Positions 1 to 20,450 of a DNA stretch of 20,450 nt are shown here, in pieces. The number at the start of each line of letters is the position of its first letter. The first letter of the stretch is position 1. Under the pieces are notes generated by a model. It was not told the DNA's origin, made no database searches, and saw only the letters and a program-made list of their open reading frames with translations. The position numbers and the translations under genes were made by a program. The DNA comes from a virus: IMG/VR virus record IMGVR_UViG_3300046045_000004; one strand, written 5' to 3'.

Positions 1-127
1 TCGGCGTGTACGTGAACGCGACGACCTCTAGGTCGTGGTCGTAGCAATACTCGATGATCGAGTCGCCCGCGGCCGCGGTCCAATCTTGAATTACGGTGCC
101 CGCGAGCGAGCGGCCGCCGAGCTTGCG
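1..127. repeat. Terminal direct repeat, copy 1 (identical to 20324-20450)
   Basis: Base-by-base comparison of tcggcgtgtacgtgaacgcg...ccgccgagcttgcg shows both ends are identical over 127 nt. Confidence 0.95.
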
Positions 128-292
128 ACCGACCGCGATCTGCTCGCCGCAGAGCGTCTCTACCGCGTCGCCGTCGTCGTCGTAGCTGCTATTTATGCGG
201 GCGTTAGTTACCTGGCACGAGAAATCCATTTCGGTAGGCGTCGCGCCGAGCGAGAGCACGCCATCCTTTAGCCGAGCTTCGGTAATAGCCAT
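1..292 (-). CDS. Putative major tail (tube) protein, N-terminal part. The gene crosses the circular junction and continues at 20148-20323.
   Basis: The ATG at 292-290 lies 4 nt after the upstream stop. Manual translation gives MAITEARLKDGVLSLGATPTEMDFSCQVTNARINSSYDDDGDAVETLCGEQIAVGRKLGGRSLAGTVIQDW... The frame continues exactly into the window-end copy, for 155 aa in total. The ORF track misses it because it runs off the window. The function is inferred from size and position and from its resemblance, by recollection only, to major tail proteins. Confidence 0.55.
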   Translation of the reverse strand, partial: MAITEARLKDGVLSLGATPTEMDFSCQVTNARINSSYDDDGDAVETLCGEQIAVGRKLGGRSLAGTVIQDWTAAAGDSIIEYCYDHDLEVVAFTYTP

Positions 293-296
293 CGGG

Positions 297-632
297 TTAA
301 ACCCCCTCGTCGTATTCGATTCGGTACGCGGGCAGCGCGGGCGCGTCGACCGCGAGCACGTACGCCGCGAGCGTCATACGCGCGACGGGCAGCACGTCGG
401 CGACGGCATCGGCGAGCACGTCGAGCGCCTTATGCGCGTCGGCGTTAGGTGCGCCGGGCGCGAGCGCCCATAGCCGCCAGCTCGCGGTATATCCGCACGC
501 GAGGTCGTAGGTTCGATCGGGCGGCACGACGAGCACGCACGGCGGCGTCGCGCTGCGCGGATCGGCCGTCGCGGTGATACCCGCGGCGGTTAGTTTTTCG
601 ACGAGCACGAGCGCGGCGTCGTAGCTGCTCAC
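297..632 (-). CDS. Head-tail joining or tail-terminator-like protein (111 aa)
   Basis: This is the C-terminal part of track ORF 297..809. The GTG at 632-630 overlaps the upstream stop (GTGA). The sequence VSSYDAALVLVEKLTAAGITATADPRSATPPCVLVVPP... looks like small neck or terminator proteins. The Arg-rich N-terminal extension of the track ORF overlaps the adaptor gene and was discarded. Confidence 0.6.
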   Translation of the reverse strand: MSSYDAALVLVEKLTAAGITATADPRSATPPCVLVVPPDRTYDLACGYTASWRLWALAPGAPNADAHKALDVLADAVADVLPVARMTLAAYVLAVDAPALPAYRIEYDEGV

Positions 633-973
633 GCGATCGCGCTCGGTTGGTATTCGCCTAGCTGCAATAGCGAGCGGAATTCGGGATCGAGGCGCGGCAG
701 TAGCGAAACGCCGAGATCGGCGAACGCGGCGACGCCTTGCACGCTGCCGCGCCGACCGTAGAGGCGTGCCGCCTCGACGAGCGCCGCCTGCTCGGCGCGC
801 GCGGGCCACGACGTAAGCGGCTCGCCCGTCGCCGGGTCGAGCACGAGGTCGGGTCGAAATACGCCTACGAGGTCGTTAGCGGCCGCGACCGCCGAGCCCA
901 TCGCCTCGGCGTCGACCGTGCTAGCCGGGTCGATGCCTAGATACGTGCGCAGAGTCTCGACGGTCGCGGGCAT
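629..973 (-). CDS. Head-tail adaptor (phage gp6-like connector family)
   Basis: Track ORF of 114 aa. An ATG follows the RBS AAGGGGGAGAG. The sequence MPATVETLRTYLGID...AEQAALVEAARLY is typical of gp6-like adaptors. It lies immediately after the capsid gene. Confidence 0.75.
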   Translation of the reverse strand: MPATVETLRTYLGIDPASTVDAEAMGSAVAAANDLVGVFRPDLVLDPATGEPLTSWPARAEQAALVEAARLYGRRGSVQGVAAFADLGVSLLPRLDPEFRSLLQLGEYQPSAIA

Positions 974-985
974 TCGCTCTCCCCC

Positions 986-2233
986 TTACTTGCCAGCCGA
1001 CGCGCTACGCGACGCGCTCGCGCCACCCGTCGCGCTCACGCTGCACTCGGCGAGAGCTTGCGGCTCGGGCACGGTCGGCAGCGCGCGAATCTCGGCGAGC
1101 AGCAGCAGCACGTTTTTTACGAAATTGTCGGCGTGCGAATCCGTGAGATACACGGCGGTCGTGCCACGCGAGAACACGGTTACGCCTTGCGAGAAATCGC
1201 CGACGTACGCCGTGCCCGCGAGTACGTCACTCGACGGCACGACGCGTAGGCCCCATACCTGCCGCGTCTGCACGGGCCCGAGCAGCGTCGAGCCCATAAT
1301 GCCGAGGTCGATATCGGCGGCGTCGTTCGGGTTGAGTACGACGGCGTTCGGCGTGTAGCCGTTGCTCTCGACCGTCGCGAGCCCGACGCGGATCGCTTGT
1401 AGCAGCGTGCCGCCCGCGGGCACGGTCGCCGCGGGGATCGCGGCCGCGGCGAGCGCGCCCGCGATACCGCCCTCGACCGTACGCATTAGCCCTTGACGCA
1501 ATCGGCCCTCGACGATCGCCCGAATTTGCGGGATATCTTCCAGCGCCTGCCGCGTAATTTCTTTCCAGTGTGCGTACGTCGAGAGCGTGTCGCTCGTCGG
1601 CGTCGCGGTCATGTTCGCCTCGGGTTTCGCGGTGCCCTCGGCGACCTCGCCCGCCGCGGCTTGCGGATTCGGCGTCCATTGCACCCACGAAACCGCGTTA
1701 CCGCTCACCGCGAGCGAGCCGCAGACATCCATTAGCGGCGACGGAAAGCGCGGCACGGGCGGCGTGTAGATATACGGCACCGCGATCCCGTCGCCCGTCG
1801 TGATCGGCGCACGCGTCTCGATGCCGACCGCCTCGCGGCGCTCGATGATCCCGTCGCCGGGCAGCTCGACGCGCGCCGACGACCCGGCGCCGACGTAGTT
1901 ACGAAACGCGTCGCTCTCGACGAATTGCTCGCCCCACCCGAGCGGGGCGGGCGTGCGAGTCTGCACGCGCGCGGGCGTGCGCACGGGCGCGTCGTCGTCG
2001 CCGATCGCGAGCGAGTCGCGCAGACGGGCGTACGCCCGCTGGCTCTCCGCTTGCGCGTTGTATTCGGTTAGCTGCGCGTCGATCTCGGCGCACCGTGTCT
2101 GCCACGCGGTGAGCGATGCGCGCTCGGTTTCGGTTAGGTCGCGCTCGTCGGTCGCCGCGTGTTCGGTTAGGTCGGTCGCGGATTGCGTGAGCGAGTCGCG
2201 CTCGTCGGTCAACCGCCGCAAGTAAGTAAGCAT
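986..2233 (-). CDS. Major capsid protein, HK97 fold, with an N-terminal coiled-coil delta/scaffold-like region
   Basis: Track ORF of 415 aa. An ATG follows the RBS GAGAGGTG. The N-terminus is charged and helical (LTDERDSLTQSATDLTEH...), followed by an HK97-like body (YAHWKEITRQALEDIP...AVVLNPNDAADIDL...). It lies downstream of the prohead protease. Confidence 0.9.
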   Translation of the reverse strand: MLTYLRRLTDERDSLTQSATDLTEHAATDERDLTETERASLTAWQTRCAEIDAQLTEYNAQAESQRAYARLRDSLAIGDDDAPVRTPARVQTRTPAPLGWGEQFVESDAFRNYVGAGSSARVELPGDGIIERREAVGIETRAPITTGDGIAVPYIYTPPVPRFPSPLMDVCGSLAVSGNAVSWVQWTPNPQAAAGEVAEGTAKPEANMTATPTSDTLSTYAHWKEITRQALEDIPQIRAIVEGRLRQGLMRTVEGGIAGALAAAAIPAATVPAGGTLLQAIRVGLATVESNGYTPNAVVLNPNDAADIDLGIMGSTLLGPVQTRQVWGLRVVPSSDVLAGTAYVGDFSQGVTVFSRGTTAVYLTDSHADNFVKNVLLLLAEIRALPTVPEPQALAECSVSATGGASASRSASAGK

Positions 2234-2291
2234 CCGATAGCACCTCTCGTGAGCGACGCACGACGCGTGTCGGGCGTCGAGACGGTTTCGC

Positions 2292-2340: not shown

Positions 2341-2381
2341 CCGTGCCGCGGGCTCGGGCCGGGCGGGCCGAGCAGATTCGA

Positions 2382-2933
2382 TTACCGACGACGATACGCC
2401 AGCGGCGGTATCGGGTCGAGGTTTACGTCGGGCCGAGCGCGGAACGGGGCGAGCAGGTCGTCGAGGCTCTGCGCGTTACGCACCGCGAGCAGCCCGGCGC
2501 CCTCGTAGGCGGGCACGGCTACGAGCGAAACCTCGACGAGCTTCGCCTCGGTCACCTCGCGCACGCCGTCGTCGGCTCGCCGGGCGTCGAGCCCGAGCCA
2601 GCCCGCCGACATAGCGCCGAGGTACCCGTCGCGGCAATCCTCTAGCAAGCGGTCGCCCTCGTCGCCGTGGTTCACGACGAATTCGCCGACGAGCCCCTCG
2701 GCGCCGTCGTCGAATCGGCGCGAGACGCCGAGCCGTAGCGATTGGTCGTGGCGGCGCAGTAGCGGTATACGCGTCTCGCGGTGCGCGATCGAGCGGGCGA
2801 ACGCGCCGCGGCGAATCCGCTCGCCGTTCGGATCGGGCGTCAGATACGAAACCTCGTCGTAGGGTGACACGACGCCGACGACGACGCGCTGCGCCGTGTT
2901 CACCTCGCGCAATTCCATCTCTAGCGATTGCAC
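2382..2933 (-). CDS. Prohead maturation protease, HK97 family (S78-like)
   Basis: Track ORF of 183 aa. A GTG follows the RBS AAGGGGAGG. The sequence GVVSPYDEVSYL...RRHD...GAMSAGW...VSLVAVPAYEGA is typical of HK97 prohead proteases. It lies between portal and capsid. Confidence 0.85.
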   Translation of the reverse strand: MQSLEMELREVNTAQRVVVGVVSPYDEVSYLTPDPNGERIRRGAFARSIAHRETRIPLLRRHDQSLRLGVSRRFDDGAEGLVGEFVVNHGDEGDRLLEDCRDGYLGAMSAGWLGLDARRADDGVREVTEAKLVEVSLVAVPAYEGAGLLAVRNAQSLDDLLAPFRARPDVNLDPIPPLAYRRR

Positions 2934-2935
2934 GG

Positions 2936-3175
2936 CTATCGCCTCCCCTTATGGTGCCGCGTCGTGATATCCGGGTACCGCCGATTAACGGCGCGCTCGA
3001 CCGTGCGATACGAGCCCGAGGTCGAGCGTTTCGCCGAGAGCGAGAGCGCAGCTCGTGCGCGCTTGCGCGTATCTATCGGGTACGCGTTACGACCTCGGCC
3101 GCCGACGCGTGACCGTTTCCCGTACACGACCGCCGACGCGGGCAGCGCGGCGCGGCGACTCGCCGAGATCGTCAC
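2936..3175 (-). CDS. Small basic protein between portal and protease (79 aa), function unknown
   Basis: Track ORF. The GTG overlaps the portal stop (GTGA). The segment AYPIDTRKRARAALSLSAKR...RAVNRRYPDI looks like a conserved head-module mini-domain. That resemblance is from recollection only. Confidence 0.55.
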   Translation of the reverse strand: MTISASRRAALPASAVVYGKRSRVGGRGRNAYPIDTRKRARAALSLSAKRSTSGSYRTVERAVNRRYPDITTRHHKGRR

Positions 3176-4425
3176 GGGCCGAAAGGCGCGCGGTCCTCTA
3201 GCGCGCGCACCTCGTCGACGGTCATAAACCCCGCGTCGATCGCGATTTTGTAGCTCTCATATCGCGATTTCGTATCGGCGCGCAGTAGCGCGTCGGTCGC
3301 AATCTTTACCGACGTGCCGCGCGGTAGCTCGGCGTCTAACGTCGACTCGATACGCCGCTGCCACGGCAGCAGGGTAAACGTGCGTAGTTCGATCATGCGC
3401 GACTCGACGTTCGCGTACGTCGAGCTATCGCCGGGCACGCCGAGCATGTAGGGCGGCACGCCGAACGCGATCGCGATATCGCGTAGCGACCATTCGCGCG
3501 CGGTCGATAGCTGCGCGTCGACGGGCGAGATAGCGACGGGCGTAAAATCCGTCGTTGCGTTTAGCACCGCGATCGAGCGCCGCGAGCCGCCGTGCTGCTC
3601 TAGCCATTTCGCCTTTAGCGCCGCGGCGTCGGTATCGGAGAGGTGCGGCTGGCTCGATTTCAGATAGCCCGCGGGTACGCCCGTCGTGAATACGCCCGAC
3701 GCGTAGCTGCGCACGGTCGCGGCGAGTCCCAGCTCGAGCCCGTGGGAGTCGATCACCCCGCGGCCGTGCCCGTTGAAATAGGGCGGCATTCCGCGTAGGT
3801 GCAATACCGAGCCGGGCGGTAGCGGTATCTCGTCGATCCAATACGTGCCCGCGTCGATCGTGACGGCGTGCGGGTGCAATTGCCAGAGCGGCGGTTTCGG
3901 CGCGCCCGCGCTGTCGCGCACGGGCGCGTATATGTAACCGTCGCCGAGCCATAGCGCGGCGACGATCCATTGCGCCCAAAACTCGACGGCCGATAGCCGC
4001 GCGTCGATCACGTCGCCCGCGCCGCCGACGACGCGGCCGTCGAGGCGCGTAGCTTGCGGGTCGGTAATCCAATCGGGCGCGGGTAGCTGCTCGTAGTCGC
4101 CGCGGATTACGTGCCACGGTAGGCCCGCGATCGTGTCGGCGACGATCGACGTGCAGCGCGTCACCGCGGGCAGCGTCGCGAGCCCGCGCGGGTCGCCGTC
4201 GATCGACGCGACGAGCGGGTTACCGTACGGGCCGCCCGTGCCGTCGCCGCCCGCGGGCCCTAGCCACCATAATTGCGGCGCGTCTATCTCCCACCCGTCC
4301 GGGTCGTTTAGCAGTACGTCGCGGCCATCGGTCGCGGTGTGAACGTGTACCGCGGGGCCCTCACGGGGCGAGCGGATCGGATCGCCGAGCGGCGACGCCG
4401 CACGCCGCGAGAGCGATAGCCGCAC
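3172..4425 (-). CDS. Portal protein (HK97-type)
   Basis: Track ORF of 417 aa, directly downstream of terL. The regions AVEFWAQWIVAALWLGDGYIY..., SIAVLNATTDFTPV and FGVPPYMLGV are characteristic of portal proteins. Confidence 0.9.
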   Translation of the reverse strand: MRLSLSRRAASPLGDPIRSPREGPAVHVHTATDGRDVLLNDPDGWEIDAPQLWWLGPAGGDGTGGPYGNPLVASIDGDPRGLATLPAVTRCTSIVADTIAGLPWHVIRGDYEQLPAPDWITDPQATRLDGRVVGGAGDVIDARLSAVEFWAQWIVAALWLGDGYIYAPVRDSAGAPKPPLWQLHPHAVTIDAGTYWIDEIPLPPGSVLHLRGMPPYFNGHGRGVIDSHGLELGLAATVRSYASGVFTTGVPAGYLKSSQPHLSDTDAAALKAKWLEQHGGSRRSIAVLNATTDFTPVAISPVDAQLSTAREWSLRDIAIAFGVPPYMLGVPGDSSTYANVESRMIELRTFTLLPWQRRIESTLDAELPRGTSVKIATDALLRADTKSRYESYKIAIDAGFMTVDEVRALEDRAPFGP

Positions 4426-4446
4426 TAGCCGAGGGTCGGCACGCGG

Positions 4447-5877
4447 TCACCATATACGCGACGGCTCGACCTCGGCGGGTACCCGAGCCGATACCCACCG
4501 GGCGAGCGACGCGGCGACGAGCGCGCTACCGCCGTCGAGCCGTGACCAAACCCACGCCTGCCCGATAGGGCGCCGAGCCGCCGACGCCGCCGCCGTATCG
4601 AGCACGAGGTGCGGGCGATGCGCGCCCGTGCCGTCGAGCACGGCGTCGTAAAACGCGGCGCACGCTATCTGTAGGTCGCGCGTCGACGAGACGACGAGAC
4701 GGTCGTACACGGGGCGTAGCTGCTCGGCGACCGTGCCCGCGGGCCCCGCGGCGTCGATCGCGATCGCGGTCGGCGACCATTGCGCCGCTAGCTCTACGAG
4801 CCGTGTCGCGACGTGCGCCGCGGGCACGAGGTCGACGACCTCGACGACGCCGCCCGAGCACGCGACGATCGGCGACTCGCTCCGATCGGGCGGGATATCC
4901 GCGGCGAACGTGATCGGGCCGGGCGGCAGCGGATCGAGGTACGCCGACGCGGCCCACGCGTCGACGGGCAGCACGCGCACGTCGGCATCGGTACGCCATC
5001 GGTTCCCGTACTCATGCGCGAATTGCCACGCGGGCATATGGTCCGCGGCAACCGCGAGCGCGTCGTAAATCGGGCCGCCGTCGAGCCCCGCGGACGGGTG
5101 CGCCCGCCATACCTCGCGCAGCAGCTCGCCGTCGTCGACCTCGGCACGTATCCCGTAATCGACGAGAGCGACGCGCGCGTGCGGATCGTCGAGCGCCGCG
5201 CGCGCGACCTCGACCTGCCGAGCGAGAAACCTGCTCTCGGGCCCGCCCGCCGTGCTCGGTATCCATATCTGCCCGTCGCGCGTCGCTTGCGTCGGCAGCG
5301 CCGCCGCGATTAACCCGTCGCCGTGCCGCGCATCGAAAAACCGCGCCTCGTCGAGCACGACGAGATCGGTAACGCTGCCGTGTAACGAATCCTCGGCGGG
5401 CGCGAAAACCCGTAGCTGCGCACCGTTCGCGAATTCGATTTCCTCGGCGCCCGCCGCGCCCCTCACGCGGTAATCCCAGCCGCCCGAATCCCACCCGCGG
5501 TGCGTATTCCCCTCGACGAGCGGCGACCGCCGCAGTAGCCGCACTAGCTCGCGCCAGCGTAGAACCGCGTCCATACGGCTCTGCGCCGTATACCACACTT
5601 GCGCGCCCTCGATCGCGAGGCAGCGGTCGATCGCCACGAGCTGCACGAGCCGCGTTTTACCGCTCTGCCTCGGCACGATCACGACGACTATCGGGTAGCG
5701 CCATCGCCCAGCGCGTCGCGAGTACCCGAGGCGCGCCGCGCGCGCTTGCCAGGGCCATAACGAGACGCCGAGCGCCTCGCTCGTGCGCAATAACGACCAC
5801 CCGCGCCCGATGTTCGGCGATGCGCGGGAGATAGCGCGCGGCTTAGGTGCGCGTTGGCGCGGTGCGGCCGTTACCAC
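4447..5877 (-). CDS. terL: Terminase large subunit
   Basis: Track ORF of 476 aa. Walker A is VPRQSGKT, Walker B is LVVLDEA, and there is a C-terminal nuclease-like half. The GTG start overlaps the HNH ORF end by 7 nt. Confidence 0.9.
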   Translation of the reverse strand: MVTAAPRQRAPKPRAISRASPNIGRGWSLLRTSEALGVSLWPWQARAARLGYSRRAGRWRYPIVVVIVPRQSGKTRLVQLVAIDRCLAIEGAQVWYTAQSRMDAVLRWRELVRLLRRSPLVEGNTHRGWDSGGWDYRVRGAAGAEEIEFANGAQLRVFAPAEDSLHGSVTDLVVLDEARFFDARHGDGLIAAALPTQATRDGQIWIPSTAGGPESRFLARQVEVARAALDDPHARVALVDYGIRAEVDDGELLREVWRAHPSAGLDGGPIYDALAVAADHMPAWQFAHEYGNRWRTDADVRVLPVDAWAASAYLDPLPPGPITFAADIPPDRSESPIVACSGGVVEVVDLVPAAHVATRLVELAAQWSPTAIAIDAAGPAGTVAEQLRPVYDRLVVSSTRDLQIACAAFYDAVLDGTGAHRPHLVLDTAAASAARRPIGQAWVWSRLDGGSALVAASLARWVSARVPAEVEPSRIW

Positions 5878-6212
5878 TCGCGATCGCTCGACCGTCTAGA
5901 GAAAATGGACAGAGTCACGGGGTGTTCCGGGGGCGCACCCATCGGAGAAACGGGCCCCAATTTTTCGGGCCCCTCTTTTTGGCCCCTCTTTTTCGGGCGG
6001 GTATTCGCGGCACGGTTACACCGGGGGTGGGAGGGGCGTGCCGTGTCATCGGTACCGCCGAGCACGCGGGGCACGACGTGATCGAGGTCGAATGCCTCGC
6101 CGTATCGGATCGGTTCGCCGCAGCGCGGGCACGGTTGCGGTAGTTGCTCGGCCCACCATGCGCGGAGTCTGCGCCACGCTCGGGTACTGCCTCGGTCGGT
6201 CAGTAGAGACAC
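5871..6212 (-). CDS. HNH endonuclease (packaging-associated type)
   Basis: Track ORF of 113 aa. The motifs are CPRCGEPI...DLDHVVPRVLGG...HPRCNR. It lies directly upstream of terL, as in HK97-like cos phages. The C-terminal 45 aa or so are encoded by the T-tract repeat block and may not be a folded domain. Confidence 0.8.
   Translation of the reverse strand: MSLLTDRGSTRAWRRLRAWWAEQLPQPCPRCGEPIRYGEAFDLDHVVPRVLGGTDDTARPSHPRCNRAANTRPKKRGQKEGPEKLGPVSPMGAPPEHPVTLSIFSRRSSDREW
5952..5993. repeat. T-tract repeat block. A perfect 13-bp tandem GGCCCCTCTTTTT x2 follows the related GGGCCCCAATTTTT.
   Basis: The perfect copies are at 5968-5980 and 5981-5993, and the degenerate copy is at 5952-5965. This is the most AT-rich spot of the late region and lies between the HNH catalytic core and the terL start. 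Confidence 0.85.
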
Positions 6213-9554: not shown

Positions 9555-9555
9555 C

Positions 9556-9834: not shown

Positions 9835-9846
9835 GGGTGGGGCCCT

Positions 9847-11600: not shown

Positions 11601-11611
11601 ACCGCCGAGCG

Positions 11612-13001: not shown

Positions 13002-13032
13002 AAATCGCGGACTACAGATCCACCCGAGCGCG

Positions 13033-14199
13033 TTACGACGCGCGGTGCGCCTCGATTCTGCGCCACGCGTTCGCGAGCGCCGTCGTCGCGAGGTCGTCGA
13101 CCTCGGCCCGCGCGTGCCCGTATACCTCTAGCAGCATCGCGGGCGTTGACCAGCCGTTACGCGCGGCGACGTTCAGCACGGGCACGCCCGCGGCTACCTG
13201 CTCGCTCGTGTTCACGTGCCGTAGGTCGTGGAAACGGAGCCGCACGCCCGCCGCGCGCGCTGCCCGTACCCATCGCTGCCCGAGAGCTTGCGGGCTCGTG
13301 TAGTCACGCTCTAGCCGCCGCGAGAGCACGGCTCGGTCGTCGAGGTCGTCGACGCCCGCACGCTCGGCCGCCTCGACCTGCCGTAGATAGCGGCTCGTCA
13401 GCATCGCCGCGCACGACGGGTCGAGACGCACGCGGCGTACCTTGCGCGTTTTTGTCGTGCGCCGCTGCCACGCGTTATCGCCGGGTCGCCCCTTGCATAC
13501 GTTCCCGTCGATCCGTACGACGCCGCCCACGAGGTCGATATCGCGCCAGCGGAGCGCGGCTAGCTCCCCTCGTCGGGCGCCCGTCGCGATCGCGAGGTGT
13601 ACGACCTCGCCGAGGTCGTCGCCCTCGTCGAGCCCCTCTAGGACGCGAGCGATATCGCCGAGGTCGTAGTCGTCGACCGCCCGGCGCGGCTCGTGGTCGT
13701 GGTCGTCGTCGAGCGCGGCCGGGATTACCCGAGCGCCGTCGTACTGCTCGCGGCGAATCCATCGGGCCCGCTCTACGTCGGCGAGCGCCTGCCGCACGAG
13801 GCGGGCGACGCCGCGCACCGTGCGGAGCGAGAGCGTCGGCGCGTGAGGCGCCACCGTGCCCGCTTGTAGCTGCCCGTAGTACCGCTCTAGCCGTTCCGGG
13901 TCGAGAGCGTCGAGCCGCACGCTTGCGAGCCAGTACGGCCGCACGTAACGCTCGACGCCGCCGACGTAGGCCCGCTCGGTATTCGGCGCCCAGCCGCCGC
14001 GGTGCAGCGCGACGTAACGGTCGAGCGCGTCGATAACGGTGCGCCCGTCCGCGTCGGCCGGGCGGCTCGCGAGCTGCTGCTCGACCTGCTGCGCCTGCTC
14101 GTGCGTATCGACCGTGCGGCAGACGCGCACGCGCTTACCCGCGGCGTCGGGCCGCTCTACGGTCACCTTGTAACGTCCGTTCCCTTGCTGCTGTATCAC
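13033..14199 (-). CDS. int: Tyrosine integrase (site-specific recombinase, phage integrase family)
   Basis: Track ORF of 388 aa. The GTG lies 6 nt after GGAG. It has an N-terminal arm/SAM-like region. Catalytic-domain signatures are ATGARRGEL (Arg I), HDLRH (His-x-x-Arg) and LEVYGH (Tyr). Confidence 0.9.
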   Translation of the reverse strand: MIQQQGNGRYKVTVERPDAAGKRVRVCRTVDTHEQAQQVEQQLASRPADADGRTVIDALDRYVALHRGGWAPNTERAYVGGVERYVRPYWLASVRLDALDPERLERYYGQLQAGTVAPHAPTLSLRTVRGVARLVRQALADVERARWIRREQYDGARVIPAALDDDHDHEPRRAVDDYDLGDIARVLEGLDEGDDLGEVVHLAIATGARRGELAALRWRDIDLVGGVVRIDGNVCKGRPGDNAWQRRTTKTRKVRRVRLDPSCAAMLTSRYLRQVEAAERAGVDDLDDRAVLSRRLERDYTSPQALGQRWVRAARAAGVRLRFHDLRHVNTSEQVAAGVPVLNVAARNGWSTPAMLLEVYGHARAEVDDLATTALANAWRRIEAHRAS

Positions 14200-14226
14200 G
14201 TGTTTCTCCGATCGGATCGACCGTCG

Positions 14227-14415
14227 CGCGGGTGGCGCGACGGGTGGCGCGCCGCTGGCAAGCGGCGTATTCCGATGCTACGAGCGGCACGAGCGGCACG
14301 CGTAATGGCACGTCAGAGCGTGTACGCCGTCGCGGCTCCCTAACTCTGACATAGAGCACGGGCGCAGCGTTTCAGCAGGTCAGAGCCCCTATCCACAAGG
14401 GGCGCGGGTGGCGCG
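14227..14415. repeat. Repeat-rich intergenic region upstream of int: three GGGTGGCGCG copies, a GAGCGGCAC tandem x2 and GTCAGAG/CTCTGAC inverted motifs; attP/arm-site candidate
   Basis: GGGTGGCGCG occurs at 14230-14239, 14242-14251 and 14406-14415. GAGCGGCAC x2 is at 14282-14299. GTCAGAG is at 14312-14318 and 14380-14386, with its complement CTCTGAC at 14344-14350. The small hairpin GCCCC-tatccacaa-GGGGC is at 14386-14404. Confidence 0.6.
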
Positions 14416-14603
14416 CGCGGTGGCGGTGGATAACGGCGGGCCCGGATCGTGCGTCTAGGGTGCCGCCGCGCGCGCGGGCGGCGCCCGTCGAGAGTGGCGA
14501 AAACGGATCGGCTCGGCGACCGTCCGCGTGCGTACAGTCGGCAGCGGCGGGCACGGCCGGGCGGCCCTCGTTCCCCCCAGCCGAGCCGCCCGACGTGCCG
14601 CCT

Positions 14604-14708
14604 CTACCCGTGCGTCGCGAGGTACACGAGCAGCAGCGCGAGCCCGAGCAGCCCGCCGAATGCCAGCACGACGTACGCCGAGGCGCGATCGAGCCCGCGC
14701 CGACGCAC
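14604..14708 (-). CDS. Tiny single-TM protein (34 aa), holin/lysis-accessory candidate
   Basis: Hand translation gives VRRRGLDRASAYVVLAFGGLLGLALLLVYLATHG. It is in frame with, and 7 codons downstream of, the TAG ending the preceding TM ORF. The start codon is uncertain. Confidence 0.4.
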   Translation of the reverse strand: MRRRGLDRASAYVVLAFGGLLGLALLLVYLATHG

Positions 14709-14729
14709 GCCCGCCCGCCGTCGTCGTCG

Positions 14730-14828
14730 CTAGCCGCGGCGCGTGAGCCCGACGAGCCAGCGCACGAGCGCGATACCCGCGAGCACGCCTAGCTCGATGT
14801 TCAGCACGAGAGCTTGCGTATGGCTCAT
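14730..14828 (-). CDS. Tiny single-TM protein (32 aa), holin candidate
   Basis: Hand translation gives MSHTQALVLNIELGVLAGIALVRWLVGLTRRG. The ATG overlaps the endolysin TAA (TAATG). Confidence 0.5.
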   Translation of the reverse strand: MSHTQALVLNIELGVLAGIALVRWLVGLTRRG

Positions 14829-15514
14829 TACTGCCTCGTTCGCATCGCGTACGCCTCGCCCTTAATCGAAACGAGGTCGTAGCCGTGCGCGCCGCCGTCG
14901 CTCGGCGCGCAGAGCACGCGGAACCGTCGCGCGGGATCGTTGCGCACGTTCGCCGGTAGCGAGAAATACGACCCGTAAAACGGGCCGCGCACCGTGCGCA
15001 CGCCGCCGTCGTATTGCAGATCCCACGCGCCCTCGTCGGTTACGAGCCGCGCGACCGTTTCCTTATCTCCGGGCACGTCGTCACCTCCCACGGGCGGCGC
15101 GCTCGCGCCGCCACTCTCGCCGAGGCACGCGGCGACGACCTCGTGCCAGCGCGCCATCGTGAAATCACCGGGGCATACCGTCGAGCTGCCCGGACTATTG
15201 CGATGCGCGACGACCTCGGGCTCGTCGACGACGTACCCGTGCGCGCGTGCGTCGTCGAGCGCCGCGGCGATTACGTCGAGGTCGTGATCGGTAACCGCGT
15301 GCTCCATGCGGTTACCCGGTAGCACGAGGTCGACGCTAACGCCGTTTCGGTCGAGCGTCGCGTACGACGACCAAACATCGCGGAACCGAGCGAACGTATC
15401 GGTACCGATCGCGTACGTGTAGCCGCCCTCAGAGCAGCGCCACGCGTTCGCCGCGGTCGTCGGCGCGCCCGCGCCCTCGTGGTGCACGGTAACGAGCGAG
15501 ACGGGCGCGGGCAT
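14828..15514 (-). CDS. Endolysin: N-acetylmuramoyl-L-alanine amidase (PGRP/Amidase_2-like) with an uncharacterised C-terminal domain
   Basis: Track ORF of 228 aa. VTVHHEG...HRNSPGSSTVCPG matches the zinc-amidase signature. A Gly/Pro linker follows, then a C-terminal domain of about 80 aa. It lies after the tail genes and before the TM ORFs. Confidence 0.8.
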   Translation of the reverse strand: MPAPVSLVTVHHEGAGAPTTAANAWRCSEGGYTYAIGTDTFARFRDVWSSYATLDRNGVSVDLVLPGNRMEHAVTDHDLDVIAAALDDARAHGYVVDEPEVVAHRNSPGSSTVCPGDFTMARWHEVVAACLGESGGASAPPVGGDDVPGDKETVARLVTDEGAWDLQYDGGVRTVRGPFYGSYFSLPANVRNDPARRFRVLCAPSDGGAHGYDLVSIKGEAYAMRTRQ

Positions 15515-15627
15515 TAGTCGCCCGCGTCGTCGTCGTGCTCGGGCTCTGCCTCGGTTTCGGTTTCGTCGTCGTGCTCGACCTCGGGCTCGTCGACGGGCTC
15601 GGGCTCGGGCGTTTCGGTAGGCGTCAT
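15514..15627 (-). CDS. Highly acidic 37-aa ORF
   Basis: Hand translation gives MTPTETPEPEPVDEPEVEHDDETETEAEPEHDDDAGD. There are TAATG overlaps at both ends, so it is perfectly nested between neighbours. Coding status is unproven. Confidence 0.4.
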   Translation of the reverse strand: MTPTETPEPEPVDEPEVEHDDETETEAEPEHDDDAGD

Positions 15628-15788
15628 TAGCTGCTCACTTTCTCGCCGGGTTTCGTGTTCCGCGGGTCCGCGGTCACGCCGTGATTACAACCGCCGCAGA
15701 TAATCGTTTCGGCGGGTATCTCGCCCGCGTTGTCTTTCGCGATTAGGTACTCGGGGCATTCGGCGTTTTCGCAATAGACCGTGCTCAC
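15627..15788 (-). CDS. Small zinc-ribbon protein (53 aa)
   Basis: This is the C-terminal part of track ORF 15627..15950. The GTG at 15788 overlaps the upstream stop (GTGA). VSTVYCENAECPEY...IICGGCNHG fits C-x4-C...C-x2-C. Confidence 0.55.
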   Translation of the reverse strand: MSTVYCENAECPEYLIAKDNAGEIPAETIICGGCNHGVTADPRNTKPGEKVSS

Positions 15789-16261
15789 GATTGCGGCTCC
15801 ATAGCTAGGACGAATAGCGACGCGACGACGTTCGGCATATTCGCGTTCGTCGACGCGGACCAGCAGAACAGGGTTACGGCCGAGGCGGTCGCGCCCGCGA
15901 TGGGCGTAAAAATCCACGCGGCCTGCCCGCCGCCTTGCGCCGCCGACCACACTTGTAAAAACGGCGCCACCGTGAACGGCCGTAGATGGTTAATCGTGCC
16001 TTGCGCGTTCGCGTTGAATGTCACACTTAGCATCCGCGCCTCGACGTGCGGTGCGCCGAGCGTGCGCCACGCCGTACCGTCGTACACTTGCACCGGGTAC
16101 GGCGCGGTCGTGATAACGACCATCTGCCCGACGACGGGCGCGACGATCGCGGCGTCGCGCGCAGCCGTCGACGTGAACGTCGCGACGACCTGCTCGCCGA
16201 CGTAATCGTTAAAGTCTGCCGCGAGCGTTTCCTCGCCGACCGCCCAAACCTTAAACGGCAT
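15785..16261 (-). CDS. Minor tail protein / receptor-binding candidate (158 aa)
   Basis: Track ORF. The N-terminal MPFKVWAVGEETLAADFNDYVGEQVV resembles, from recollection, the conserved N-terminal motif of actinophage minor tail or fibre proteins. It is the last tail gene. Confidence 0.55.
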   Translation of the reverse strand: MPFKVWAVGEETLAADFNDYVGEQVVATFTSTAARDAAIVAPVVGQMVVITTAPYPVQVYDGTAWRTLGAPHVEARMLSVTFNANAQGTINHLRPFTVAPFLQVWSAAQGGGQAAWIFTPIAGATASAVTLFCWSASTNANMPNVVASLFVLAMEPQS

Positions 16262-17669
16262 CGCGCGTACCTCCCCCTAGCCCGAGCACGTACCCCGCGT
16301 CGAGCCGATCGTTAGCGTGCGGGCCGAGCGTGAATATGGAGCCCGAGAGCCCGAGCAGGTCGGCGCCGACGAGGTGCCAGTCGATCTCCCAGCTACGCCG
16401 CGTTATGCGGTACGTAAACCCGATTACGCGCGCGAGGTGATCGACGACCGCCTCGGGCCGATCGGGCGGCGCCCATACGATGCGCGCGAGGTCGGTAACG
16501 AGCGCGAGCGAGAGCACCTCGCGCCAGCACGTCGCGCTATCGGCCGCGATACCCGGAAGCATGGTCACGTCGTCGAGCCCGAGCAGCGGGTACGCGTAGA
16601 GCACGAGCAGGTCGGTAACCCATTTCGCTACTTGCGCGTCGTCGGCGAGCCCGAGGTCGTCGCGGCTGTAGTCATACCGGCCGTAACGCTCGATACTCGC
16701 GAGCGATTGCGCGAGCTGCTCGCTACCGCCCGAGCGCGCGCAGTGAATGCGGTTCCGCTGCTGCGCGTCGGCCGTGCTCGGCGTCGCGTCGGTTAGCACG
16801 TCGTGTAGCCCCTCGCCGCAACCGAGCGCGACGACGGGCGGCGTAATCGCGATCCATGCGGCGCGGTTTGTCCACCGTAGGTGCCCGCTGCGCGTGAAAT
16901 GTACGTAGCCCATCTCGTCGTCGAGCGTGCGGTTAAGTAGCTCCCAGCCGCTCTGCGCGAGCGTCGTGCTCTGTAGCGTCACGGTCGACGCGGGCGCCGG
17001 GTCGACGACTCCGGGCCAGCCGTAGAAATCGACGAGCCGCTGCACGCGCTGCTCGGTCGTGTCGCCGTTGCCCGCGGGCGGTTGCTCGGGCTCGTCGTAG
17101 CGCGCCCAGCGTTTCGTTTCGTCGGTCGCGACGAGCTTCGCCTGCCGCCCGCTCGGGCGCGGTGTCCAATCCTCGGCCCAGCTATCCGCGGTGCCCGTGA
17201 AAACGTCGTAGCTCTCGACCGTGCCCGCGTCGTCGACGACGACCTCGGCGAACGCGTACACGGGCACGCCCGGCGTTAGACGCGAGCGACCGCCGTACGA
17301 AAACGGCGGCACCGGGTTAAGCGGGTCGTAGATGCCGCCCGGATCGGAGAGCGTTACGACGCACGTAGCCGCCTCTGCTTTCGAGAAAATGCCATCGGCC
17401 GATTGCGCGCCGCCGCTTACCTCTACGTCGAGCACGTCGCACGTAAGGTCGTGCCAGAGCCGACCGCTCGGCGCCTCGCGCCCCGCGACCTCGCCGCCGC
17501 CGAGCACGTTTCCCGCGTCGAGACGGTCGTTAGCGTGCGGGCCCATATGGTGCGGCACGCCCGCCTCGATCGCGGCGAGCAGATAGAAACGCACGTAGCC
17601 GCCCCACGCGGGCGCGGCCGCGCCGCCCGGCGTACCGGGCCACGGTTGCGACGGCTCCCAGCTCGTCAC
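16251..17669 (-). CDS. Minor tail protein (distal-tail/baseplate-like, 472 aa)
   Basis: Track ORF. The GTG overlaps the TMP TAG by 1 nt. It occupies the position immediately after the tape measure. It contains an internal direct repeat encoding GPHANDRLDAG. Confidence 0.65.
   Translation of the reverse strand: MTSWEPSQPWPGTPGGAAAPAWGGYVRFYLLAAIEAGVPHHMGPHANDRLDAGNVLGGGEVAGREAPSGRLWHDLTCDVLDVEVSGGAQSADGIFSKAEAATCVVTLSDPGGIYDPLNPVPPFSYGGRSRLTPGVPVYAFAEVVVDDAGTVESYDVFTGTADSWAEDWTPRPSGRQAKLVATDETKRWARYDEPEQPPAGNGDTTEQRVQRLVDFYGWPGVVDPAPASTVTLQSTTLAQSGWELLNRTLDDEMGYVHFTRSGHLRWTNRAAWIAITPPVVALGCGEGLHDVLTDATPSTADAQQRNRIHCARSGGSEQLAQSLASIERYGRYDYSRDDLGLADDAQVAKWVTDLLVLYAYPLLGLDDVTMLPGIAADSATCWREVLSLALVTDLARIVWAPPDRPEAVVDHLARVIGFTYRITRRSWEIDWHLVGADLLGLSGSIFTLGPHANDRLDAGYVLGLGGGTRDAV
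16282..16325. repeat. 44-nt direct repeat, copy B (40/44 identical to 17500-17543)
   Basis: The sequence is ccgagcacgtaccccgcgtcgagccgatcgttagcgtgcgggcc. It encodes the C-terminal GPHANDRLDAGYVLG of the 472-aa tail protein. Confidence 0.85.
17500..17543. repeat. 44-nt direct repeat, copy A
   Basis: The sequence is ccgagcacgtttcccgcgtcgagacggtcgttagcgtgcgggcc. It encodes the N-terminal GPHANDRLDAGNVLG of the same protein. Confidence 0.85.
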
Positions 17670-19351
17670 TAGCCCGCGCTCCGTATCGGGATATCGAGCG
17701 GCCCGTTACGCAAGGTATGTCCGCGCAACGCGCGCACGACCGCCCGCTGAATTTGCGGCGCGTCGGCACCTAGCCCCGTCGTCGTGACCGTGAGGTTTAT
17801 TACGGTCGTGCCGCCCATCGTGTTACCGACGCCCGAGAATGTCTCGCCCGCGTGCACGAGCGCGAGCCCCGTACGCATAACCGAGCCGCCCGTCGCAAGC
17901 GTCGGGATATCGGGTAGGCCGATCGTTTGCCCGCCGAAATGGATAGGCCCGATATCGACTTTCGGCACCGTGAATTCCAGCCCGTTCCACGCGCGGATAA
18001 CGGCGTTTAGCGGGCCCTTAATCGCCGACGCGATCGACGACGCGACGCCCGAGACGTAACCGAGCGCCGTCGAGATCGCCGATTTCACGCGCTCGATAAT
18101 TCCGCTAATGACTCCCCACGCGGCGGTAAACGGCGCGGTCAGCACGCCCGTTATCGCCGACCATGCCGAGCGGAGCCAGCCGAGCAGCGTCGCCGCCGCG
18201 CTCTTTATCGAGTCCCAATAACGCACGATGATCGCGACGGCTATACCTATCGGGCCCGTGAGGATCGCGAGCAGCAGGGGCCAATTGCTCTTAATCCAAT
18301 TCCAGACGGCGCGGATCGCGCCGAGGATCGCGTTCCACGCGGTGACGACGAATCCCCATAGCGTCGCCATCGCCGCTTTAATCGTGTCCCAATTCTTGAC
18401 GATTAGCACGCCGATCGCGATTAGCGCGGCGATAGCCGCTATCACCGCGAGTATCGGCCAGAATGCCGCCGCCATACTGACGCCGAATAGCGTCGCCGCC
18501 ACGCTCGCGATATTCCACGCGACCGCGAGCACGCCGATAACGATCGCGAGCGGCATGATCCACGAGATATTTTTTTCGATGAATCCCGCGATCGTTTCCA
18601 GTATCGGCGCGAGCTTGTCGAGGATCGGTATAAGCGCGTTTCCGATCGCCTCTTGCGCGTTGCCCCACGCTACGTTCATTTTGTCGGCGCTCGTCGCGGT
18701 CGCCTCGGCCGTTCCGCCTACTTGCGTTTCGACGGCGCCGAGCACGACGTTTTGTGCGCCGAGCAGATCGTTACTCTTGACCATCGCCTTTATCTGCTCT
18801 TTTTGCGCGTCGGTAAACGTGACGCCCGAGCGCCCGAGCGCGGTGATTCCTTTTACCGGGTCTTGTAGCGCCTTACCGAGCTGCACCGCGTTCGATTCCA
18901 GCGTGCCGAAACCCGCGGCCGCGAGGTCGGCGCCCGCTGCCGTCGCGCGATCGAATACGCCCGCCTGCCGCGCTGCCTCGCTCGATACGGCGCCGAACGT
19001 CGCGAGCAGCGTTTGACCTTTCTTAATCTCGTCGTCGTCTACGCCGATTTTTTTCGATAGCGAGTCGGCGTACTTGCCCGCCGCCGCCGCGGCGGTGCCC
19101 GTCGTGTCGCCCATCGACTTAAAAACGGCCTCTAGCGCTGCGGTCGCCTTATTGGAGTCGCGCGCCATCGCTACCGTTTTTTTGCCAAACTCGACGACCT
19201 TAGTAACGGCGTATCCGGTAGCGACGCCTTTCGCGATCGCGCCGAGCTTTTTCGTCGCGCTCTGCGCGCTGCTGCCCGTCTCGTCTATCGCCTGCTTCGC
19301 CTTGCGGGCGTCGGCGATTATGTCAATTTTCAGAATCGCGGGCGCGGCCAT
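17669..19351 (-). CDS. Tape measure protein (560 aa)
   Basis: Track ORF. The N-terminus is Ala/Lys-rich and helical. The central hydrophobic segments are IMPLAIVIGVLAVAWNIASVAATLFGV... and there are repeated W-x-x-I/L-K motifs (KNWDTIKAA, WNWIKSNW, RYWDSIKSA). GC is locally lower. It follows the chaperone genes. Confidence 0.9.
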   Translation of the reverse strand: MAAPAILKIDIIADARKAKQAIDETGSSAQSATKKLGAIAKGVATGYAVTKVVEFGKKTVAMARDSNKATAALEAVFKSMGDTTGTAAAAAGKYADSLSKKIGVDDDEIKKGQTLLATFGAVSSEAARQAGVFDRATAAGADLAAAGFGTLESNAVQLGKALQDPVKGITALGRSGVTFTDAQKEQIKAMVKSNDLLGAQNVVLGAVETQVGGTAEATATSADKMNVAWGNAQEAIGNALIPILDKLAPILETIAGFIEKNISWIMPLAIVIGVLAVAWNIASVAATLFGVSMAAAFWPILAVIAAIAALIAIGVLIVKNWDTIKAAMATLWGFVVTAWNAILGAIRAVWNWIKSNWPLLLAILTGPIGIAVAIIVRYWDSIKSAAATLLGWLRSAWSAITGVLTAPFTAAWGVISGIIERVKSAISTALGYVSGVASSIASAIKGPLNAVIRAWNGLEFTVPKVDIGPIHFGGQTIGLPDIPTLATGGSVMRTGLALVHAGETFSGVGNTMGGTTVINLTVTTTGLGADAPQIQRAVVRALRGHTLRNGPLDIPIRSAG

Positions 19352-19354
19352 CGG

Positions 19355-19474
19355 TTACCGCCGTCTCGCTCGTTCGCGGTCGACCTCGGCGAGCAGGTCG
19401 AGCGCGGTTAGCAGCGCGCGCGGATCGTCGAGCCATACCTCGGCCGCGACGCCGCTCCGTAGGGCGACGATCAC
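19355..19474 (-). CDS. 39-codon ORF in the -1 frame of the chaperone gene: either a gpT-like frameshift extension or a separate coupled mini-gene
   Basis: Hand translation gives VIVALRSGVAAEVWLDDPRALLTALDLLAEVDRERARRR. The GTG overlaps the chaperone TGA (GTGA). It ends 3 nt before the TMP ATG and fills the whole gap. Confidence 0.45.
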   Translation of the reverse strand: MIVALRSGVAAEVWLDDPRALLTALDLLAEVDRERARRR

Positions 19475-19764
19475 GGCGGCCCGCCCGAAAGTGTCGCGCT
19501 CGTAGGGTCCAGCGCGTGCGGGTCCGCGTCGTCGAGCGCCTCGGGCATCGCCGCGAGCACGTCGAGAAATGCGTCGTAACTACGGGGCACGTCGACGCCC
19601 TCGCGCAGTAACGCGTTATGTACGACCGCGAACGTAAGGCCCATCGCGGCGAGCCCCTCGCTCGGGTCCATACGCACGCTGGCCCAATCCCGCGCGGTTA
19701 TCTGCACGACGCGCGGCTCGTCGTCGCCGTCGAGCAGTACCGAGAACCGCTGCCACCGTTGCAC
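19471..19764 (-). CDS. Tail assembly chaperone (gpG-like), 97 aa
   Basis: This is the C-terminal part of track ORF 19471..19899. The GTG at 19764 lies 7 nt after GGGGAG and 2 nt after the upstream TAA. It is acidic and lies immediately upstream of the tape measure. Confidence 0.6.
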   Translation of the reverse strand: MQRWQRFSVLLDGDDEPRVVQITARDWASVRMDPSEGLAAMGLTFAVVHNALLREGVDVPRSYDAFLDVLAAMPEALDDADPHALDPTSATLSGGPP

Positions 19765-19766
19765 GC

Positions 19767-20147
19767 TTACGCTCCCCTCACGCGATCGAGCGCCCGCTGC
19801 ACGTCGGCGCGGTACGCCTGCTGCCATTGCGGCTCGGTAGCTTGCGCGCCCCACGCGATAAACGGATCGGGCGCGATATGGCGCGCCTGCCAGCCCCAAT
19901 GAATCGGGCCCGCGTACGGCACGCGCGCGCCGCCCGCCGAGACGCGCGCCCGCCGCGCTTGCCGCGCGGGGCGTACCGACGCGGCGAGCTTGCCCGAGCG
20001 CCGAGGCGCTCGCGCGCTCCCCTCGCGCGCGACGATCTCGCCCGCGCGTCGGTTCGCGTCCTTTAGGTCGTCGAGGTCGTGCCCGGCGCGCCCGAGCGTG
20101 CGCACGAGATTATCGAGCCCCTCGACCGTGTAAGTCTGCCCCGCCAT
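19767..20147 (-). CDS. HK97 gp10-family head-tail joining / tail-completion protein (126 aa)
   Basis: Track ORF. TVEGLDNLVRTL...APRRSGKLAASVRP...VPYAGPIHWGW...PDPFI is the typical gp10-family pattern. The ATG abuts the TAG of the preceding gene. Confidence 0.75.
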   Translation of the reverse strand: MAGQTYTVEGLDNLVRTLGRAGHDLDDLKDANRRAGEIVAREGSARAPRRSGKLAASVRPARQARRARVSAGGARVPYAGPIHWGWQARHIAPDPFIAWGAQATEPQWQQAYRADVQRALDRVRGA

Positions 20148-20450
20148 CTACTCGCCCGAGCTAGCCGACGCCGCGGCGGTCCGCGCGACGGGCGGCGTGC
20201 GCACGAGCGGCGCGGTTAGCTGCCACTCGAAATCGCTCGTTATACGCGCGTTCACGTCGCCGCCGTACGTCTCGGCGGGCACCTCGATACGGAGCGAGCC
20301 GGTAAGCGTCGGGCCCGCGGCGTTCGGCGTGTACGTGAACGCGACGACCTCTAGGTCGTGGTCGTAGCAATACTCGATGATCGAGTCGCCCGCGGCCGCG
20401 GTCCAATCTTGAATTACGGTGCCCGCGAGCGAGCGGCCGCCGAGCTTGCG
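20148..20450 (-). CDS. Putative major tail protein, C-terminal part (5' end runs off the window; 20324-20450 duplicates 1-127)
   Basis: Hand translation gives ...FTYTPNAAGPTLTGSLRIEVPAETYGGDVNARITSDFEWQLTAPLVRTPPVARTAAASASSGE, ending in the TAG at 20150-20148. It is in frame with 1-292 through the repeat. Confidence 0.55.
   Translation of the reverse strand, partial: RKLGGRSLAGTVIQDWTAAAGDSIIEYCYDHDLEVVAFTYTPNAAGPTLTGSLRIEVPAETYGGDVNARITSDFEWQLTAPLVRTPPVARTAAASASSGE
20324..20450. repeat. Terminal direct repeat, copy 2 (identical to 1-127)
   Basis: See copy 1. Confidence 0.95.

Follow-up and report, generated by a model that had tools for sequence, protein, structure and literature searches.

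The virus record IMGVR_UViG_3300046045_000004 of IMG/VR, one strand of 20,450 nucleotides analysed here in full (the window), is a complete 20.3-kb genome. Very likely it is that of an autonomous, probably temperate, cos-packaging siphovirus of actinobacteria, one of a large uncultured clade with genomes of 19–23 kb that is distant kin to the cultured small-genome actinophages. The size class and its temperate members are already known among cultured actinophages. What sets it apart, as judged from gene content, comprises separate protease and capsid genes, a large terminase (TerL) gene placed first at a conserved cos site, a RecT recombination module, and the lack of a detectable small terminase (TerS) or repressor.

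A closed genome in a family of similar size

Bases 1–127 of the window are identical to bases 20324–20450, which gives a unit length of 20,323 bp. A Logan contig (SRR35440316, 20,305 bp; L001) encodes the same proteins, is linearised at another point, and differs from the window by one mismatch over the 12.8 kb compared. Because this contig crosses the junction of the window and has the 127 nt there only once, the repeat is a circularisation overlap and not a duplication, and the window is not a fragment. A gene call based on codon usage recovers about 38 open reading frames (ORFs), slightly fewer than the 40 counted in a preliminary description of this DNA; all are intact and densely packed, and all except four lie on the minus strand. 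Every gene named in that description was recovered through Pfam, PHROGs, profile comparison, sequence motifs or position, including the head, tail and lysis genes (among them a tail assembly chaperone, a tape measure of 560 amino acids (aa), two tip proteins, and an endolysin with transmembrane ORFs), and likewise the integrase, an excisionase (Xis)-like helix-turn-helix (HTH) gene, an exonuclease with RecT, and a methyltransferase.

The portal protein has 732 homologues at E ≤ 1e-20, and the best 120 of these, which are 59–81% identical, are nearly all metagenomic. Among these 120, the longest contig reaches at least 18 kb in 40, of which 36 measure 18–25 kb; similarly, the contigs of the 139 IMG/VR relatives top out at 19–23 kb. 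Relatives of 20.6–21.5 kb with Pfam annotation carry an integrase gene (int), HTH_17, an exonuclease (YqaJ or PD-(D/E)XK), RecT, small ORFs, a DNA methylase, TerL, portal, S78 protease, capsid, tail and amidase genes, and the closest relatives, L012 and L096, are syntenic with the window along the part compared, about 18.2 of 20.6–21.1 kb. L101 (JGI 3300036846), a 29.7-kb contig, amounts to 1.5 copies: its portal-protease-capsid block recurs after ~19.7 kb, which indicates a true genome of about that length. Across the family the structural module is conserved and the early module is mosaic.

Seven portal relatives lie in reference genomes. The six closer ones are in Actinomycetota (Lapillicoccus, Xylanimicrobium, Acidimicrobiaceae, Micromonosporaceae, and Promicromonosporaceae), and the seventh, a 28% match, is in an Acidobacteriota metagenome-assembled genome; in addition, one 93-kb metagenome contig has a relative adjoining host genes. 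High G+C (63–73% in the window), best cultured hits that are all actinophages, and the six closer relatives in Actinomycetota together point to an actinobacterial host.

Virion and lysis genes

From TerL onwards, the virion and lysis genes of the window are as follows.

4447–5877, minus strand: large terminase TerL, 476 aa (phrog_9, 2.2e-38)
3172–4425, minus strand: portal, 417 aa (PF04860, 1.7e-63)
2936–3175, minus strand: very basic 79-aa ORF, function unassigned, without family match
2382–2933, minus strand: prohead serine protease S78, 183 aa, in a gene of its own (PF04586, 5.6e-15)
986–2233, minus strand: HK97-type major capsid protein, 415 aa from ATG (PF05065, 2.8e-16, residues 158–377)
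629–973, minus strand: head-tail connector/adaptor, 114 aa (phrog_5938, 6.4e-19; 39% identity to the RRH1 homologue)
297–632, minus strand: second neck protein, 111 aa (phrog_6768, 4.6e-11; synteny with Lunatic gp7)
20148–20323 joined to 1–292, across the junction, minus strand: major tail protein, 155 aa (phrog_4574, 5.4e-20)
19767–20147, minus strand: tail completion/Neck1-like protein, 126 aa (phrog_5, 1e-12; 45% identity to the RRH1 and SallySpecial homologues)
19355–19764, minus strand: tail assembly chaperone pair, a 97-aa ORF and a 39-aa ORF in the −1 frame (by position between tail tube and tape measure)
17669–19351, minus strand: tape measure protein, 560 aa (16 PHROG tape-measure families, best 1.7e-28)
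16251–17669, minus strand: tail-tip (minor tail) protein, 472 aa (hhalign)
15785–16261, minus strand: small minor tail protein, 158 aa (phrog_16452, 5.8e-8)
14604–15788, minus strand: lysis region, with a 53-aa Zn-ribbon ORF, a 37-aa acidic ORF, an amidase and two single-transmembrane ORFs
14828–15514, minus strand: Amidase_2 endolysin (PF01510, 5e-5)
14730–14828 and 14604–14708, minus strand: the two single-transmembrane ORFs, 32–34 aa (read from the sequence)

The capsid product is also called as 415 aa in the Logan contig. Its N-terminal ~150 aa, ahead of the capsid fold, is presumed to be a scaffold or delta domain, and the gap between the protease and capsid genes is ~150–170 nt, depending on start choice. 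The second neck protein occupies the tail-terminator position of small actinophages. More than 40 loci conserve both chaperone ORFs. The second overlaps the first in the −1 frame, in the manner expected of a G/GT frameshift pair; 19355–19764 holds no slippery heptamer of the canonical form XXXYYYZ. The tape measure protein also matches one PHROG family of unknown function. In lambda, the tail measures ~0.15 nm per tape-measure residue, and by analogy 560 residues would predict a tail of ~84 nm. The 472-aa tip protein has no match in the profile libraries; its family alignment was compared by hhalign with RRH1 gp14, McGonagall gp15 and SallySpecial gp15, at 89% probability (E 2e-6). The 158-aa minor tail protein, the N-terminus of which is conserved in 28 loci, is a candidate receptor-binding protein.

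A conserved cos site within the HNH gene

Two overlapping features adjoin TerL.

5871–6212, minus strand: HNH endonuclease, 113 aa (PF01844, 8.9e-7)
5899–5995, minus strand: cos region, within the 3' part of the HNH gene

The HNH gene is homologous to the HNH genes of RRH1, McGonagall, SallySpecial and Maggie; that of SallySpecial is annotated as spanning the cohesive ends, and in the window the last 13 HNH codons lie past the predicted cos cut. In order, the site consists of three direct repeats of an A-tract and a G-run, then CCGTTTCTCCG, 17 nt, and AACACCCCG-TGACT followed, across the cut, by CTGTC-CATTTTCTC. The physical ends of Lunatic (cluster EE, Orlajensenviridae, 16.9 kb) hold the same elements at the same 10-nt spacing as the window, with ...CCGTTTCTCCG...GACACCCCGCCCCA at the right end and GTTGGCATTTTCAC at the left; the right end of Maggie (cluster AN, 15.6 kb) reads ...GGACACCCCGCGCCACC and its left end CCGATCTTTTTTCC. 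Both phages thus share with the window a succession of T-run, GACACCCCG, ~5 nt, end, and CATTTTC. The window holds one occurrence of the pattern ACACCCCG-N10-CATTTTC, where 0.03 would be expected.

The contig termini of relatives provide evidence that is independent of the comparison with Lunatic and Maggie. At 71 related loci the upstream flank is limited by the contig end, and in 34 of these the portal match starts 1.35–2.1 kb from it, which puts the contig end just upstream of TerL. Seven related contigs begin exactly at (C/T)TGT(C/T)C, where ~0.07 would be expected, and six other distinct contigs read through GGACA(C/T)CCCG-N3-5-(C)TGTCC; in L013, the cos motif opens the contig, and 36 nt separate that end from the start of TerL. 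The left end of the virion DNA is predicted at 5912 (CTGTCC...), with the cut between 5913 and 5912, 35 nt before the TerL start. A cut at this point would make TerL the first gene of the virion DNA, and would leave no room for a TerS gene at its canonical place. With the motif conserved and found at the contig ends of relatives, the cos-type unit genome that the preliminary description had assumed is now a supported feature. The HNH gene abuts TerL and the genome has, by the motif and the contig termini, defined ends, as in HNH-assisted cos packaging.

The three repeats (CGAAAAAGAGGGGCC, AAAAAGAGGGGCCC and GAAAAATTGGGGCCCG; 5945–5995, minus strand) lie ~15 nt apart, are very atypical in a genome of 69% G+C, and double as codons of the Lys/Gly-rich tail of HNH; they could be the recognition site of the terminase. 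The sole base difference between the two assemblies (A versus T, at window position 5915 and L001 position 27) falls within the 5 nt separating ACACCCCG from the predicted cut. The Logan contig breaks close by, leaving a gap at 5942–5959; this break was considered as a virion terminus and rejected, being ~30 nt off the predicted cut.

The integrase region

Three features bear directly on lysogeny.

13033–14199, minus strand: tyrosine integrase, 388 aa (PF00589, 1.8e-15)
12630–12839, minus strand: HTH_17 protein, 69 aa (PF12728, 1.9e-11)
14200–14603, unstranded: non-coding region upstream of int, with repeats

The integrase has the HDLRH motif (HxxR) and the C-terminal tyrosine. The HTH_17 gene adjoins int in the window and in relatives, a pairing that is conserved across the family, and its product is a candidate excisionase or early regulator. 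The ~400 nt upstream of int (14200–14603) show no coding signal, and the nearest same-strand ORFs beyond them are the two 32–34-aa membrane ORFs. This region, a candidate attP or early promoter-operator, holds CGCCACCYGCGC repeats, two GCTCTGAC(C/G)TGC repeats 67 nt apart (14308–14319 and 14375–14386), and an inverted TATCCAC pair (14390–14396 and 14426–14432) whose members are the only two copies in the genome. A block of ~80 nt is conserved in L102, where the integrase is 77% identical, and so is GCTCTGAC(C/G)TGC (L102 ~3400–3500). On an unrelated metagenome contig (L105, 2950–3200), GATAGGCTCTGACCTGCGGAAAC occurs three times at ~57-nt spacing upstream of a YqaJ-exonuclease operon, which suggests an operator or arm-type site as opposed to a crossover core. 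From the integrase, the Xis-like gene and the att-like region we infer, on good grounds, that the phage is probably temperate. The same call in the preliminary description rests on these three features; a repressor and an integrated close relative were not found.

The TATCCAC pair resembles DnaA boxes (CTATCCACA and TTATCCACC); as a replication origin it was rejected, since the count is not significant and one copy only is conserved in L102. Motifs resembling the T-loop of tRNAs, examined as a clue to att, occur at chance level.

Undetected functions and alternative readings

A number of results weigh against an autonomous temperate phage. All unassigned ORFs were searched against Pfam, PHROGs, NCBIfam and PADLOC, and three of them by sequence against the PDB; none of these searches detects a small terminase, polymerase, primase, helicase or CI/Cro-type repressor, and of these gaps TerS and the repressor tell against the reading. 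Nor does the window hold an HTH_3/CI-like match or a homologue of the repressors of Gordonia clusters CW and DM. A profile for TerS was made from the annotated RRH1, McGonagall and SallySpecial proteins; run on six-frame ORFs of the window and ~100 related loci, it gives a clear match immediately before TerL in four relatives (L049, L050, L060, and L101), and nothing in the window or in any relative with a TerL at least 60% identical. Two metagenome scans with the conserved block upstream of int returned no attB for the window and no host junction, no integrated copy of a close relative was found, and all 24 integrase homologues lie on contigs of at most 30 kb. The portal relatives that are integrated are distant (42–55% identity), and their early modules differ. 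The preliminary description had listed the same absences and had proposed profile searches for a cryptic TerS or repressor; these searches, in Pfam, PHROGs and the other libraries, leave the absences standing and do not uncover the supposedly missing functions.

On the evidence of the TerS profile, the absence of an RRH1-type TerS is real for the subclade of the window; a non-homologous TerS among the small ORFs is possible. The ORFs that lie between HNH and TerL in relatives were considered as a hidden TerS and rejected, as they have no homologue in the window. By sequence reading, that of L015 is methyltransferase-like and that of L026 acetyltransferase-like, and the rest are unrecognisable.

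It is improbable, in our judgement, that the phage is not temperate, being instead a lytic or episomal phage with a recombinase in another role, such as multimer resolution, or a decaying cryptic prophage in circular form. Such an element would account for the failure to find a repressor, an attB or an integrated close relative, and may also be suggested by the atypical layout in which int is co-oriented with the early operon and leads it. Against it speak ORFs that are all intact and densely packed, an int and HTH_17 pairing that has been kept across the family, and a repeat-rich block upstream of int that is shared with the closest integrase relative; among the more distant portal relatives there are also some that have integrated into chromosomes of Actinomycetota, in one case beside tRNA genes. 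The layout of integration-dependent immunity, with the repressor gene adjoining int and attP in its 3' end, is not present in the window.

In L006 (934–1412; Xylanimicrobium pachnodae JCM 13526) a distant portal relative forms a prophage beside tRNA-Ser and tRNA-Arg. There the 3' end of tRNA-Arg is overlapped by an ORF with homology to the repressors of SallySpecial and McGonagall, the arrangement seen in integration-dependent immunity. The prophage boundaries of L005, L006 and L009 were sought, and no att repeats occur within the 21 kb examined; the int, lysis and RecT genes of these three are not homologous to those of the window.

We regard as slightly more improbable again that the window is a helper-dependent satellite, which the preliminary description had raised as a possibility, or a packaging-defective element that borrows TerS or replication functions from a co-resident phage. 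No search detects a TerS or a replication initiator, and the former gap is a true difference, given that in some relatives an RRH1-type TerS lies immediately before TerL. Nonetheless, the whole subclade with a window-type TerL (at least 60% identity; L012, L013, L020, L027, L092, and others) is also without an RRH1-type TerS, which points to a lineage trait and not to a defect. Known satellites are without tail or capsid genes, and usually have primase or rep genes. The incomplete virion gene set that marks phage-inducible chromosomal islands (PICI), capsid-forming PICI (cf-PICI) and P4-like elements is not seen in the genes of the window, where the head, neck, tail and lysis set is complete and, so far as sequence comparison can tell, homologous to that of plaque-forming small actinophages. 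The cultured small actinophages are autonomous, and their annotations likewise contain no polymerase, primase or helicase. As these plaque-forming phages do without replication genes, the lack of replication functions in the window is normal for the class, which argues strongly against a satellite and for an autonomous phage.

That the window is an assembly artefact, whether a chimera or a falsely circularised fragment of a larger genome (the preliminary description had cautioned against a chimeric or partial assembly), is scarcely credible, for although a 127-bp overlap is typical of a k=127 assembler and alone no proof of circularity, an independent assembly spans the junction so that two assemblies close the circle, L012 and L096 are syntenic over the ~18 kb compared with ~72% nucleotide identity across 12.2 kb aligned, and dozens of independent relatives end at 19–23 kb.

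Relationship to cultured small-genome actinophages

Whole-genome megablast of the window against INPHARED phages gives no match. The best cultured matches of TerL are RRH1 (37.7%), the Gordonia phages SallySpecial and Emperor (DM) and McGonagall and Jeanie (CW) (~34%), and Arthrobacter AN phages (32%); the portal is closest to Microbacterium cluster EE, at 36% identity over 63% of the query. Small-genome actinophages (clusters AN, AX, CW, DM, EE, FE, and RRH1) are a recognised class of siphoviruses below 20 kb, with a cut-off of 19,679 bp (bioRxiv 10.1101/2022.02.05.479200), and the 20,323-bp unit falls slightly above this arbitrary limit. Their large terminases share a lineage, at 31–68% aa identity (PMC5559632). 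The TerL of the window belongs with these, its top cultured matches being RRH1, DM, CW and AN at 32–38% identity. The HNH protein, connector, second neck protein, tail tube, Neck1 and tape measure find matches across the RRH1, CW, DM and AN phages, not each in every phage. At most 8 of the ~38 proteins have a tblastn match (E < 1e-3) in any of five representatives (2 have BLAST-detectable homologues in Lunatic, 8 in Maggie); taken as a rough proxy for pham sharing, and compared with the SEA-PHAGES clustering rule of at least 35% shared gene content, this places the window outside every existing cluster, as a new lineage of the same kind.

The architecture of the window also departs from that of the class. 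In small-genome actinophages the protease, scaffold and capsid are joined in one fused gene (PMC7302621), whereas the window has separate S78 protease and capsid genes in the fashion of HK97. More than 80% of their coding capacity serves virion structure and assembly (PMC5559632). In the window, the stretch from cos through the lysis cassette takes up ~11.6 of 20.3 kb, or 57%, which is below that share. With HK97 the window has in common the portal, S78 protease and N-terminally extended capsid as separate genes, and an HNH gene by the terminase across cos. HK97, with a genome of ~40 kb and a capsid of T=7, depends on a small terminase; the window differs in that TerS is undetected and the genome is half the size.

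The closest parallels in life style are the Gordonia clusters CW and DM, which are temperate (bioRxiv 10.1101/2022.02.05.479200; PMC5559632) at 15.9–17.7 kb. Like the window, McGonagall (17.1 kb) and SallySpecial (15.9 kb) have a tyrosine integrase and no polymerase, primase or helicase, and their HNH gene lies at or across cos and adjoins the terminase. TerL (34%), HNH, the tail tube, the tape measure and the ~475-aa tip protein are homologous to those of both phages; the connector and Neck1 matches are to SallySpecial, and the second neck match is to McGonagall. CW and DM phages, in contrast to the window, place TerS between cos and TerL, encode the endolysin within the head module, fuse protease, scaffold and capsid in one gene, and have an HTH immunity repressor beside int with integration-dependent immunity (PMC5559632). 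Compared with them, the window has in addition the exonuclease/RecT module, the methyltransferase and the MerR-like gene, and is 3–4 kb larger. The statement in the preliminary description that the genome is unusually small thus holds for temperate siphoviruses generally, but not beside these two clusters, which are smaller, temperate, and also without replication genes.

RRH1, a phage of Rhodococcus (14.3 kb), resembles the window in its neck-tail order, in tape measure length, in a 473-aa tip protein and in an HNH gene at the genome end; unlike the window it is lytic, has TerS and a fused capsid gene, and is without integrase and recombination genes. Lunatic and Maggie share with the window, besides their ends, a lysis cassette of an endolysin and two membrane proteins. 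Where Maggie has a single opposite-strand HTH gene, Lunatic carries three genes in a short regulatory block, also on the opposite strand. Both differ from the window in being lytic, without integrase, and with a fused protease-capsid gene, and Lunatic has two genes between cos and TerL.

Early region and candidate regulators

Between int and the HNH gene lie a recombination module, a block of mostly small genes, and the only genes on the plus strand.

10411–12627, minus strand: recombination module (exonuclease, Zn-ribbon ORF, RecT)
11839–12627, minus strand: PD-(D/E)XK exonuclease (PF12705, 6.8e-5)
11388–11729, minus strand: Zn-ribbon ORF, within the recombination module
10411–11454, minus strand: RecT (phrog_4171, 3.7e-41)
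7684–10414, minus strand: early block, with eight small ORFs without assigned function, a methyltransferase and a MerR-like HTH gene
8043–8558, minus strand: methyltransferase, 171 aa, with DPPY and FPGSG motifs (weak profile match, PF02086, 2.4e-4)
7684–8046, minus strand: MerR-like HTH protein (PF13411, 6.5e-10)
6393–7742, plus strand: sole opposite-strand block (Zn-ribbon protein, C2H2 protein and two small ORFs)

Relatives have YqaJ and RecT at the same place as the recombination module. The MerR-like gene is conserved, at varying positions, in the window and 13 relatives (14 loci in all), and its product has no match in cultured phages. Its role as a substitute for TerS was considered and rejected, as the gene is far from TerL in L092 and occurs together with an RRH1-type TerS in L101.

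The opposite-strand block separates the early operon from the HNH gene. Its Zn-ribbon protein, p103 (103 aa; phrog_4480), has as homologues unannotated genes of large Gordonia phages. The C2H2 protein, p195 (195 aa; 6704–7291, plus strand), combines a single classical, eukaryote-style C2H2 finger (ACPECGKRVTRNNLNRHRATHG; C-x2-C-x12-H-x3-H) with a conserved C-terminal helical domain, and has 7 homologues in 5.8 billion proteins. Compared with the PDB by Foldseek, its AlphaFold2 model (pLDDT 78) gave nothing beyond the zinc finger, and the idea that its C-terminus is Lsr2-like was found to be unsupported. In L096 the Zn-ribbon/zinc-finger block is placed before HNH-TerL (4093–4952), and in L092 after the lysis genes, facing int (20238–21209); judging by these positions, the block behaves as a mobile cassette would. 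Its counterpart in L092 encodes an analogous two-finger protein. The missing regulator could be the Zn-ribbon, the C2H2 or the MerR-like protein.

Proposed life cycle and significance

From these features the following cycle may be proposed. The virion would carry the 20.3-kb unit with cohesive ends cut at ~5913/5912, with TerL first and the HNH gene split by the end; upon injection the ends would anneal and so restore HNH. The integrase and the Xis-like HTH protein may then integrate and excise the genome via the repeat-rich region upstream of int. In the absence of a detectable initiator, replication would fall to the host replisome, and the exonuclease/RecT pair may help to make concatemers. 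HNH and TerL would cut these at cos and fill a small capsid, probably of T=4, built from the S78 protease and the HK97-type capsid protein. The particle would bear a short tail of ~84 nm with a minimal tip, and be released by the amidase, presumably with the two small membrane proteins. The capsid size is in keeping with a model of genome lengths in which T=4 spans 13.2–24.5 kb (PMC7762592): a 20.3-kb cos genome probably fits a T=4 head, which agrees with the earlier suggestion of a shell smaller than T=7.

A bolder version of this proposal is one that we put forward tentatively, and on balance doubt. It holds that the window represents a clade, widespread and uncultured, of temperate siphoviruses of ~20 kb that infect soil Actinomycetota and depart from known phages in two respects. 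HNH and TerL alone would package at the conserved cos, with TerL placed first at 35 nt from the end and genuinely without TerS; and lysogeny would do without a CI/Cro-type repressor, its control perhaps falling to the MerR-like protein or to the conserved opposite-strand Zn-ribbon/C2H2 pair, by way of the GCTCTGACCTGC repeats upstream of int.

More broadly, the window adds a well-delimited and environmentally common lineage to the few tailed phages near the lower size limit. It comes close to a minimal temperate siphovirus, having ~38 genes, a cos site that has been mapped, and a head predicted to be T=4. Such genomes help in asking what a temperate tailed phage can drop or outsource, be it TerS, the replication initiator or the classical repressor. 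They may also be useful as a compact chassis for the engineering of actinobacterial phages.

Minor features of the window

No tRNA and, by PADLOC, no defence gene occurs in the window; Rfam at E ≤ 1 gives chance-level matches only, and a promoter and terminator scan was uninformative. The very basic 79-aa ORF also stands between portal and protease in L083 (9301–9480), and in L012 (1796–2032) and L096 a homologue that is 81% identical lies among the early genes.

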